64,000 bases of DNA from a virus (taxonomy: Duplodnaviria; Caudoviricetes). The stretch lies in IMG/VR virus record IMGVR_UViG_3300033067_002132, positions 1-64,000 of that record, one strand, 5' to 3'. The notes below the pieces were generated by a model. That model saw only the letters and a program-made list of their open reading frames with translations, was not told where the DNA came from and searched no databases. The translations under genes and the position numbers were made by a program. This document shows positions 2,006 to 16,554 of this stretch, piece by piece (the stretch's first letter is position 1; each line of letters opens with the position of its first letter).

Positions 2006-2416
2006 GTGCAAACAAAATTTACACACCCTTTAATTTTAGAAGATAATGAAGATGAAACTTTTACTGTTGTAGAAGGGTTTACTTATGATATTGGTTATTT
2101 TGGCAGTAATTTAACGATAACGGTTCCCCCTGGAACAAGAACAGATTTTGCATCTATTCCTAAATTAGTGACCCCTATTTTTCCTAGATATGGAAAACAT
2201 ACAAAAGCAGCGGTTTTGCACGATTATTTATATAGTCTTTGTAGAGAAAAAGGATTTCCTCGCCGTTTAGCTGATTATTTTTTTCTTGAATCTATGGAAG
2301 TTTTAAATGTTCCTTGGATTAAAAGATATATATTCTATTTTTGTGTTAGAATTTTTGGATGGTTGGCTGTTAGAAAAAAAATAAACAAAGAATTAAAAAA
2401 ATTTGACAAAGACTAA
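2006..2416 (+). CDS. DUF1353 family protein
   Basis: VPPGTRTDFASIP, AAVLHDYLY, AD.FF.E.M motifs. Confidence 0.8.
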   Translation: MQTKFTHPLILEDNEDETFTVVEGFTYDIGYFGSNLTITVPPGTRTDFASIPKLVTPIFPRYGKHTKAAVLHDYLYSLCREKGFPRRLADYFFLESMEVLNVPWIKRYIFYFCVRIFGWLAVRKKINKELKKFDKD

Positions 2417-2447
2417 AATTGAGTGTAATATCTTACGAAGATTGATA

Positions 2448-2546
2448 ATGAATATGACTTATAAAACTGAACAATGGGCGCTCGCGGATAGTAATATTCG
2501 CCCGCACGGGTTTATATCATTATCTAATACAGGAGAAAAAGAGTAG
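2448..2546 (+). CDS. Putative 32-aa leader peptide (MNMTYKTEQWALADSNIRPHGFISLSNTGEKE)
   Basis: Short ORF downstream of TTGACA (2403). Its stop codon lies inside a 15-nt repeat that can compete with the terminator. Confidence 0.5.
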   Translation: MNMTYKTEQWALADSNIRPHGFISLSNTGEKE

Positions 2547-2571
2547 GGGAATTATTGTATTGTTCATATGT

Positions 2572-2608
2572 AACCCCCTAGCTCCCGAAAAAGAGTAGGG
2601 GGTTTTTT
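2572..2608 (+). terminator. Conditional terminator (attenuator)
   Basis: AACCCCCTAGCTC / GAGTAGGGGGTT hairpin + T tract; the 3' arm is duplicated upstream at 2535-2549. Confidence 0.7.
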
Positions 2609-2619
2609 ATTAAAAAATT

Positions 2620-2960
2620 TTTGAAAAGCGGCAAGCGGTGTTCTTTAAATGTACTAGAAATAGTAAACCGATAATAGAACAGAGTAGAGATATAGCGAAA
2701 TGGTTCGCAGAATCGGTAAATAGGGTTGGCCGAGCGGTAAGTAAAGTCCCTAGTTATCACCAACTCAGGTCATTTTGATGGCATTAGTTTTCCTATATAT
2801 AGGAGAACTATTTTTATATAAGATTTAAAATTAATTTCATTTAGATAAAGGCATAAGGTGTGGATCTTCATTTTCCACTAACTAATTGAAACAGATAGAC
2901 TATTAATCGAGATTACTCTTAATAGGAGGTTCCCTCAAACCGAAATCCTGAAAATCCATT
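2620..2960 (+). ncRNA. Unassigned, probably structured non-coding region
   Basis: No + strand ORF; several hairpins (TACTA-GAAA-TAGTA, GCGAA/TTCGC, TAGTTTTCCTA/TAGGAGAACTA, CTATTAA/TTAATAG); lies between the attenuator and the first tRNA. Confidence 0.35.
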
Positions 2961-2965
2961 TTTTT

Positions 2966-3042
2966 GCGTCAATCACCTAGTAGTCATGGTATCTCATTGC
3001 CAATGAGAAATAACGAGAGTGCAAACCTCTCTTGGCGCACCA
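2966..3042 (+). tRNA. tRNA-Gly(GCC)
   Basis: Cloverleaf; TCTCA-TTGCCAA-TGAGA; CCA encoded. Confidence 0.9.
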
Positions 3043-3049
3043 GATTTAT

Positions 3050-3140
3050 TGCCACCTACTCTAATTGGTAAGAGACAACGCTTTGAACGTTGTGTATGCA
3101 AGAAATTGTTATGAAGGTTCGAATCCTTCGGTGGCCGCCA
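3050..3140 (+). tRNA. tRNA-Gln(TTG) with long variable arm
   Basis: CAACG-CTTTGAA-CGTTG; 20-nt variable region; GAAGG-TTCGAAT-CCTTC; CCA. Confidence 0.8.
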
Positions 3141-3173
3141 ATTTGTTAACCAAGTACACTTATATATACTTTA

Positions 3174-3180
3174 AGTGTAA
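3174..3180 (+). promoter_or_regulatory. GTGTA late-promoter-like motif (representative copy)
   Basis: Recurs 5-15 nt upstream of start codons at about 15 loci. Confidence 0.6.
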
Positions 3181-3189
3181 TATGGTTAT

Positions 3190-3915
3190 ATGAGAAGATC
3201 AAAAATATATACTGTTTCAGACGAAGATTTTATTTTTTTAGTTAAAAATTCCAAGTCAATGTCTGAATTACTTTCTAAACTTATATTAGAAAATAAAGGT
3301 GGAAATTATTTAACAGTTAAAAGAAGGATTAAACAATTAAATATTAGTACCGAACATTTTTTATCTAGAACAAACGCTAGTCTTGCTGTAAATAAAATGA
3401 CGTTAGAAAAATTTTTAGAATTAATTAAAGGTAATTCAAAAATAAAAAGACATTCATTAAAAATATATTTATTACGTTTCAATTTAAAAGAATATAAATG
3501 TTTTATTTGTGAAAATGATGGATATTGGAATAATCAAAAATTAAGTTTACAATTAGATCATATTAATGGAAATAGTAATGATCATCGTTTAGATAATATA
3601 AGATTTTTATGTCCAAACTGTCATAGTCAAACAGATAATTTTGCGGGTAAAAAACGTAAAATTAGTAGAGAACCTTATAAATGTAAAAATTGTAATAAAA
3701 TTAAATTAAATAAAAGTCCGTTATGTATGGATTGTTTTATAATGGGAAAACATAATATTTTAAATATATCTGTAGATAATCTTTTAGAAAAAATTAAATT
3801 AAATTCTATGAGAGAGGTTTCAAGATTATTAAATATTCCTTATACAAGTTTAACAAGATTTTGTATTAAAAATAATATAGATTATAAAAATTTATGTCCA
3901 TCATTTCATGATTAA
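3190..3915 (+). CDS. HNH homing endonuclease
   Basis: LQLDHINGNSNDHRLDNIRFLCPNCHSQT. Confidence 0.9.
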   Translation: MRRSKIYTVSDEDFIFLVKNSKSMSELLSKLILENKGGNYLTVKRRIKQLNISTEHFLSRTNASLAVNKMTLEKFLELIKGNSKIKRHSLKIYLLRFNLKEYKCFICENDGYWNNQKLSLQLDHINGNSNDHRLDNIRFLCPNCHSQTDNFAGKKRKISREPYKCKNCNKIKLNKSPLCMDCFIMGKHNILNISVDNLLEKIKLNSMREVSRLLNIPYTSLTRFCIKNNIDYKNLCPSFHD

Positions 3916-3921
3916 AAAAGT

Positions 3922-3949
3922 TTGACAAAGAAGAAAAGAAATGTAAGAT
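3922..3949 (+). promoter_or_regulatory. Sigma70-like early promoter (representative copy)
   Basis: TTGACA-N16-TAAGAT; similar elements at 2403, 5352, 7340, 15747, 23027, 61074 and many others. Confidence 0.7.
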
Positions 3950-16146: not shown

Positions 16147-16554
16147 GGGCGTGAAAGGATTCGACTTAATGATAAGTTGTATGAGCGCATGTCAAGGAAC
16201 TTAGTTGGCCTTGTAAAAAAACTAAGAAAAAGTTAAATGCTAATAATGACATTAGTGAAATGCTTGGTGAAATCTCTGCTAATCCGGATGCGGTTTTAGC
16301 TGAATTTGCTAGCGAAAATGTGTTAGTCTAATTAAAGATTAATCCGTTATAATAGATAACTCCGATAGTTTAATATAACGTAATTTTCGGAATTAATATT
16401 AAAGTTTTCTTTGCTTTATTATTTCTTATTAAAAAGAATATTGATTATGTCTTTTGTTTATTAAGATATAATACAGAATTAAAAATAAACTAAACATGTA
16501 GTGCAAATAAGCAAAATTATTAAGGACTTGGCTTCGATGCCAACACGTCCACCA
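16147..16554 (+). ncRNA. ssrA: tmRNA
   Basis: 5' GGGCGTGAAAGGATTCGAC, G3:U70 acceptor, pk1-like element, tag ORF, 3' T arm + CACGTCC-ACCA. Confidence 0.9.

Follow-up and report, generated by a model that had tools for sequence, protein, structure and literature searches.

A promoter, a short open reading frame and a terminator with alternative RNA pairings in front of two phage tRNA genes: a possible ribosome-dependent attenuator

The viral record IMGVR_UViG_3300033067_002132 comprises 193,745 bp, and the stretch of DNA analyzed here, referred to as the window, is its first 64 kb (64,000 nucleotides). The G+C content is about 29% in the window, the standard genetic code is used, and about 25 tRNA genes, a tmRNA gene and homing-endonuclease genes are located in the first 25 kb. 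The cassette described here, the features of which are listed in Table 1, lies behind the genes of a DUF2828/DUF7788 protein, a vWA protein and a DUF1353 protein. It is the only unit of promoter, mini-ORF and terminator ahead of tRNA genes in this genome. The stop codon of the DUF1353 gene (2414-2416) falls within the promoter of the cassette, P2403, and the −35 element of this promoter overlaps the last DUF1353 codons. A relative with about 95% identity across 2469-3292 is present in a seawater metagenome run. In two viral contigs of 182 kb (L019 and L021), a DUF1353 gene lies within the tRNA array and is followed after about 100 nt by a tRNA with the anticodon CUA (L019 3352-3426, L021 3334-3408), which, from its sequence, looks like an amber suppressor.

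Table 1. Features of the cassette in the window and of the corresponding region in the relative L052.
Sequence	Feature	Position	Strand	Remarks
Window	P2403, early sigma70-type promoter	2403-2431	+	Member of the TTGACA-type family
Window	Leader ORF, 32 codons	2448-2546	+	ATG at 2448; TAG stop codon at 2544-2546
Window	Mid-ORF GC-rich hairpin, 7 bp, GUAA loop	2484-2501	+	From folding
Window	15-mer copy 1	2535-2549	+	3' nine bases (2541-2549), including the stop codon, are region 2
Window	Spacer block between stop codon and T1	2559-2569	+	Conserved in L052
Window	Region 3 (5' arm of T1)	2574-2584	+	Pairs with copy 1 or copy 2
Window	Terminator T1	2574-2608	+	From folding, with T6 tract at 2603-2608
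Window	15-mer copy 2	2587-2601	+	T1 loop and 3' arm (2593-2602), followed by T6
Window	Non-coding stretch behind T1	2609-2965	+	357 nt; early-family promoter absent
Window	T2, terminator-like AU-rich hairpin	Stem 2785-2810, T5 2811-2815	+	
Window	tRNA-Gly(GCC)	2966-3039	+	Rfam
Window	tRNA-Gln(UUG)	3050-3140	+	Long variable arm
L052	Promoter	2341-2369		ATG 9 nt past −10
L052	ORF, 31 codons	2379-2474		Ends in TAG
L052	Terminator	2507-2542		T1-like build
L052	Second strong promoter	2554-2581		Directly past the terminator

P2403 consists of the −35 hexamer TTGACA (2403-2408), a 17-nt spacer and the −10 hexamer TAATAT (2426-2431), from which transcription would start at about position 2438. The TTGACA-type pattern has 13 matches in the window, 12 of them on the + strand, compared with 1.6 expected, and this number was reached by none of 100 shuffles. 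When the pattern was scanned along the genome, the + strand matches of the family were confined to the first 65 kb. P2403 is the second-best site genome-wide against the weight matrix of the family, where P2403 itself was among the training sites. Further members of the family are found within the tRNA array at 3922, 5352, 15747, 17501 and 23026. The matrix scan found no early-family promoter between 2560 and 3160, where the best site scored 1.8 bits compared to 29.4 bits for P2403. The tmRNA gene (16147-16554) lies about 400 nt past the best early promoter (15747), and its predicted 30-residue tag does not end in the usual Ala-Ala.

At the promoters 5352, 41554, 43082 and 55401, an ATG is located just 7-10 nt past the −10 hexamer, a spacing suggestive of mRNAs with no leader or almost none. 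AGGAG is found upstream of 5 of 151 long ORFs, so that Shine-Dalgarno sites are essentially unused by the phage. The short distances between −10 and ATG, together with the few Shine-Dalgarno motifs, indicate a host with initiation independent of such sites. The leader ORF of the cassette is likewise preceded by a 5' UTR of about 10 nt without a Shine-Dalgarno motif.

The leader ORF contains no run of one amino acid. Rare codons are located at codon 12 (CTC) and at codons 18-21 (CGC, CCG, CAC and GGG; 2499-2510), and an 11-codon window of the leader is among the lowest 0.9% of phage-gene windows. The hairpin at 2484-2501 and the rare codons form a candidate pause hairpin and/or a candidate slow-decoding site, and these two readings are inseparable because the rare codons and the GC-rich hairpin share bases. 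Codons cognate to the phage tRNAs account for 55% of the leader compared with 56% in ordinary phage genes, and the idea that the leader is written in the codons of the downstream tRNAs was rejected because there is no enrichment. Of the codons that match the two tRNAs behind T1, Gly(GCC) and Gln(UUG), CAA occurs once in the leader, and GGC and GGU are absent. A PHROG match to the leader peptide was not obtained.

The terminator T1 is built from an outer stem (2574-2580/2596-2602), a bulged G at 2581, an inner stem (2582-2584/2593-2595) and an 8-nt loop. With a folding energy of −16.7 to −17 kcal/mol, it ranks with the strongest terminators of the genome. The exact 15-mer occurs in only two copies in the 193,745 bp, one over the stop codon of the leader ORF and the other across the T1 loop and 3' arm, and at least three matches to it with at most two mismatches were found in none of 100 shuffles. 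The repeat can be extended to 22 nt at 86% identity, running into the T tract, and it includes six A-rich bases that are left unpaired when the repeat binds the 5' arm of T1. From its sequence, copy 1 looks like a duplicate of the T1 loop, the 3' arm and the start of the T tract; the unpaired A-rich bases and the extension into the T tract indicate a local duplication, possibly a neutral one. Outside the window, at 88573 of the genome, a strong terminator has a stem of the same type as T1, with C5-TAG in its 5' arm and CTAG-G5 in its 3' arm.

Two relatives of the region, L052 and L054, were reached via the neighboring proteins among Logan contigs. The DUF1353 protein of L052 is 71% identical to that of the window, and L052 has an extra 65-codon ORF ahead of the promoter, for the 65-aa product of which a homologue was not found. 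As shown in Table 1, the order of promoter, short ORF and terminator recurs in this distant relative, and in both phages the terminator is the first one past the DUF1353 gene. The ORFs of 32 and 31 codons both start with ATGAAyAT, both stop codons are embedded in GTAGGGGA, and both phages have a common block 13-14 nt past the stop codon. The terminators have a common build of 7-8 bp, a 1-nt bulge, 3 bp and an 8-nt loop, in which four of the ten pairs are changed on both sides, that is, in a compensatory manner.

The interior of the leader has diverged almost randomly between the window and L052. The two peptides gave no BLASTP alignment, and their global alignment score does not differ from that of shuffles (p = 0.72). 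A conserved small phage protein was therefore rejected as an explanation, as the L052 peptide is unrelated and the PHROG match is absent. By chance, the ORF of L052 would be open and in register with a probability of approximately 0.03-0.09. At the place aligned to 2484-2501, L052 has a different hairpin, and its block aligned to 2559-2569 forms a 9-bp helix with codons 3-5.

The end of the ORF and the terminator are linked by a predicted alternative pairing in both phages. In the window, both copies of the 15-mer are able to pair with 2575-2584 in the 5' arm of T1, and region 2 is the 5' strand of the predicted antiterminator. In L052, a couple of G-runs that immediately precede the stop codon would pair with two C-runs of the terminator's 5' half; this pairing uses other bases in another register and is therefore not a retained copy of the repeat in the window. 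For transcripts ending before the 3' arm of the terminator, the minimum-energy fold pairs the 5' arm with the ORF end in the window as well as in L052. The duplex of the ORF end and the 5' arm has an energy of −14.6 kcal/mol in the window and −17.6 kcal/mol in L052, compared to means of −5.3 and −5.6 kcal/mol for random windows of the phage genome, of which 0.7% and 0.1%, respectively, reach the observed value.

The calculated energies of the terminator and antiterminator hairpins are −16.7 and −11.9 kcal/mol in the window, and −12.7 and −19.2 kcal/mol in L052. The barrier to refolding from the antiterminator to the terminator, as a direct-path estimate, is 9.7 kcal/mol in the window and 18.7 kcal/mol in the full leader of L052, which makes a kinetic trap plausible. 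The spacer block at 2559-2569 is also able to pair with the 5' part of the ORF, either at 2448-2457 or at 2468-2475. In the latter case, TGAACAAT (2468-2475) and ATTGTTCA (2559-2566) form a perfect 8-bp inverted repeat; as a pairing of this kind is expected by chance in about 10% of cases according to a rough estimate, it carries no weight alone and was not used as independent evidence. On the − strand, 2585-2540 contains the reverse complement of the antiterminator followed by T5, a terminator-like structure of −13.7 kcal/mol; a converging gene on the − strand is not found near it.

The effect of a ribosome on these pairings was modeled by masking a footprint of about 30 nt, which reaches about 10-12 nt past the A site (PMC4824070). 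When the footprint is placed at the stop codon, the probability that the 5' arm is paired upstream decreases from 0.76 to 0.10 in the window and from 0.66 to 0.23 in L052. When it is placed at codons 18-22, the upstream pairing of the 5' arm remains at 0.65-0.80. In the equilibrium fold of the full-length L052 leader, the antiterminator is favored in the stalled states, and the terminator is favored with a ribosome at the stop codon and, to a lesser degree, on naked RNA. In the window, T1 wins at equilibrium in all the modeled ribosome states, which means that a switch there would be purely kinetic. The distance from the stop codon to the T1 hairpin is 27 nt; in Escherichia coli, a ribosome that terminates this far away leaves the terminator free to form (PMC4824070).

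The original prediction for this DNA had described a leader-peptide attenuator, and its elements are found where it placed them: the promoter, the 32-codon ORF and the terminator, the 15-mer at 2535-2549 and 2587-2601, the pairing of both copies with the same 5' arm upon folding, the complementarity between the early part of the leader and the spacer, and the absence of a run of a single amino acid. Its proposal that a ribosome at the stop codon masks copy 1 and a ribosome further upstream does not agrees with the geometry and with the footprint folding, where the mask at the stop codon removes the antiterminator and the upstream mask keeps it.

The second relative, L054, is 99% identical to the window over 2387-2700, with flanking genes that are 76-83% identical at the DNA level. 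The four differences in this block are one base beside the −35 element, one base in the spacer, an ACG in place of ATG at codon 3, and a terminator loop shorter by one A, by which the exact 15-mer is broken. Synonymous differences were found in 38 of the 136 DUF1353 codons compared with none of the 32 leader codons. Because the leader interior of L052 is nearly random, recent exchange accounts for the 99% block of L054 better than constraint does, and a reading of its near-identity as purifying selection, in a block amid genes of 76-83% identity, was rejected. L054 was accordingly not counted as evidence, and L052 is the one informative relative. Two non-coding islands, 1263-1308 and 2387-2700, are 98-100% identical to L054 between genes of 76-83% identity, and the boundaries of this mosaic pattern coincide with gene ends.

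Further relatives were searched for in several ways. BLASTN of the region against annotated phage records, near and distant, gave no match. Exact and gapped scans of viral and metagenome contigs for the hairpin, the terminator, the post-stop block and the G-run/C-run patterns gave only unrelated or high-GC chance matches, and some of these scans had no match at all in the viral contigs. The loci in viral contigs reached via the DUF1353 and vWA proteins were discarded because they are not syntenic.

What T1 could control is restricted by the surrounding features. The tRNA-Gly(GCC) and tRNA-Gln genes are the only tRNA genes before the next promoter, and P2403 is the sole early promoter in front of the approximately 530 nt from 2609 to 3140, with T1 and T2 intervening. 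Because the array has its own promoters from 3922 onward and because T2 follows T1, T1 could gate at most 2609-3140, and most tRNAs of the array are independent of it. The claim in the original prediction that the cassette switches on the tRNA array is thus too broad, given the five or more promoters inside the array and the intervening T2. The attenuator reading itself is favored by the architecture and by its recurrence in L052 with different bases; its reach over the tRNA array has to be given up. Within these limits, a conditional T1 is sensible in the phage of the window, since only P2403 precedes 2609-3140.

The region 2609-2965 is partly alignable to 2728-2828 of L052. A search of the leader and ncRNA region (2400-2970), L052 and L054 against Rfam, including T-box, gave nothing above chance. 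A D-arm motif like that of type-II tRNAs is located at approximately 2723-2745 in the non-coding stretch, and the changes of T2 in L054 convert G-U pairs into Watson-Crick pairs. The tRNA-Gly(GCC) gene, which has an encoded CCA, is called by Rfam and not by ARAGORN. In the corresponding slot of L054 (3627-3700), the acceptor ends and the anticodon loop are kept and 45% of the positions differ; the slot is no longer called a tRNA by Rfam, and the adjoining tRNA-Gln is 100% identical.

The reading that we tentatively prefer is that the cassette may be a ribosome-dependent transcription attenuator, because this explains more of the features at once than its rivals do. The host RNA polymerase would start at P2403 and transcribe the 32-codon ORF, the G-rich 3' end of which (2541-2549) is synthesized first and would pair with the C-rich 5' arm (2575-2584) as the arm emerges. 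If the ribosome is slow, stalled, for example at the rare codons of 2499-2510, or absent, the antiterminator would hold, and transcription would read through T1 into 2609-3140, that is, into the ncRNA stretch, tRNA-Gly and tRNA-Gln. If instead a ribosome that translates the ORF closely behind the polymerase reaches the last codons or the stop codon, it would mask region 2, so that copy 2 could pair with the 5' arm and the transcript would end at 2608. The terminated RNA would be about 170 nt long and might have a function of its own.

In its fullest form, the proposal describes an attenuator without regulatory codons, which gauges how closely ribosomes trail the RNA polymerase. The 3' half of the terminator would have been duplicated into the end of the ORF; healthy translation would stop the transcript at about 170 nt, and failing decoding, caused by host tRNA cleavage, starvation or rare GC-rich codons, would give the ncRNAs and the first tRNAs. 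We consider this complete version rather unlikely. Several findings stand against an attenuator: in L052, the second strong promoter directly behind the terminator means that the downstream genes need no read-through; in the window, T1 is much more stable than the antiterminator, T2 lies between T1 and the tRNAs, and the remainder of the array is served by promoters inside it; a run of regulatory codons is absent; and only one relative is informative.

The main rival to the attenuator, somewhat doubtful and yet to be taken seriously, is a self-contained early cassette in which a promoter precedes either the gene for a small, rapidly evolving protein or an sRNA of approximately 170 nt whose frame is open by chance, with a constitutive terminator at the end. 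T1 would, in addition, end the DUF2828-vWA-DUF1353 operon, and the complementarity would be a by-product of the duplication of the T1 3' half and of the G/C-run type of stem used by this phage. Promoter-ORF-terminator units are common in early phage regions. The immediate succession of terminator and strong promoter in L052 is that of an insulated unit, and the position of T1 as the first terminator past DUF1353 in both phages fits a role at the end of the operon. The six unpaired bases of the repeat and its extension into the T tract fit a duplication, and the terminator at 88573 has the same type of stem. The equilibrium folds of the window, in which T1 always wins, and the chance probability of the open frame in L052 also agree with this explanation. 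However, a single duplication is insufficient for the complementarity in L052, which uses different bases in a different register, and the stop codon lies in or at the complementary segment in both phages. The position and length of the ORF are kept while the peptide is unconserved, and 2609-3140 has no promoter of its own in the window; these points also argue against the self-contained cassette.

A translation-independent RNA switch, in which a protein, a small RNA or a tRNA sets the choice between terminator and antiterminator by binding the G-rich segment, or a terminated transcript that acts in trans via this segment, with the ORF being incidental, is improbable. The GC-rich hairpin with its GNRA-type loop in a genome of 29% GC, and the long-range pairings between the 5' and 3' parts in both phages, are in line with such an RNA, and trans-acting RNAs derived from attenuators exist (rnTrpL, PMC6614838). 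The L052 leader folds better than its own shuffles (z = −2.9), whereas the fold of the window leader is no better than its own (z = −1.2). The leader interior is unconserved between the two phages, unlike a ligand-binding aptamer, the Rfam match is absent, and the L052 ORF stays open and in frame. Still less probable is an ordinary terminator with a recent neutral repeat and a chance frame in AT-rich DNA, for although approximately 20% of all ATGs in the genome, including those of real genes, open at least 31 codons and the ORF list for the area contains many entries of 25-50 codons, the full layout recurs in L052 despite the near-random interior and P2403 is among the best promoters in the genome.

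If the ribosome-dependent attenuator is real, the phage senses the translation state of its host directly and responds with RNA genes. It would also illustrate a simple route to an attenuator, namely the duplication of the 3' half of a terminator into the preceding ORF, and would provide a small part, about 170 nt long, for sensing translation. Without switching, the cassette would amount to a common kind of early mini-gene followed by its terminator. To our knowledge, phage tRNA islands are usually viewed as constitutive accessories, and their regulation is essentially undescribed; our literature search found no paper in which leader-peptide attenuation is connected with tRNA or other RNA genes of phages.

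Among phage elements, the cassette resembles the promoter-early/stem-loop cassettes (PeSLs) of T4-type phages, which were reportedly described by Arbiol et al. in 2010 and which, as far as we know, have not been proposed as translation sensors. The likeness lies in the strong early promoter directly past the terminator in L052 and in the mosaic early region, where a cassette is 99% identical between phages with flanks of 76-83%. In contrast to PeSLs, the other early promoters of this genome are not preceded by stem-loops, and terminator-promoter cassettes of this kind were for this reason rejected as a general feature of the genome.

The terminated leader can be compared with the rnTrpL sRNA of Sinorhizobium, the leader peptide of which is peTrpL (PMC6614838, PMC7298713). 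In both cases, termination yields, or would yield, a separate leader RNA of 100-170 nt with the potential for action in trans; trans activity has been reported for rnTrpL, whereas it is only putative here.

The leader-peptide attenuators of amino-acid operons, such as trpL, hisL and pheL (PMC1183508, PMC3082878), have a short promoter-proximal ORF, an intrinsic terminator 60-70 nt past the stop codon, and, where the ORF ends, an upstream competitor for the 5' arm of the terminator, as does the present cassette. The predicted outcome is also the same, with termination when a ribosome is at the stop codon and read-through when it stalls earlier, and L052 additionally has a pairing of the 1:2 type, from which termination of the naked RNA is predicted. 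The window differs in this respect, as it has no 1:2 structure and its untranslated RNA is predicted to read through. Further differences from the trpL type are that the cassette is encoded by a phage, that codon runs for one amino acid are absent, and that the output consists of RNA genes, not biosynthetic enzymes.

Attenuators of the ermK and bmrCD type have leader ORFs that respond to general translation stress. Leaders of this kind also include vmlR of Bacillus subtilis (PMC9226507) and toiL of E. coli, which acts via Rho (PMC12121999). They resemble the present leader in that there is no amino-acid-specific run of codons and that a stall anywhere in the ORF would raise downstream expression. 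The known cases control bacterial resistance or toxin-antitoxin genes and respond to antibiotics, whereas RNA genes of a phage would be controlled here, and toiL acts via translation and Rho instead of an intrinsic terminator. By analogy, the vmlR-type leaders are the closest match to the idea of a general translation-stress sensor, and the trp-type attenuators together with the vmlR and toiL stress leaders are the nearest described analogues of the cassette.
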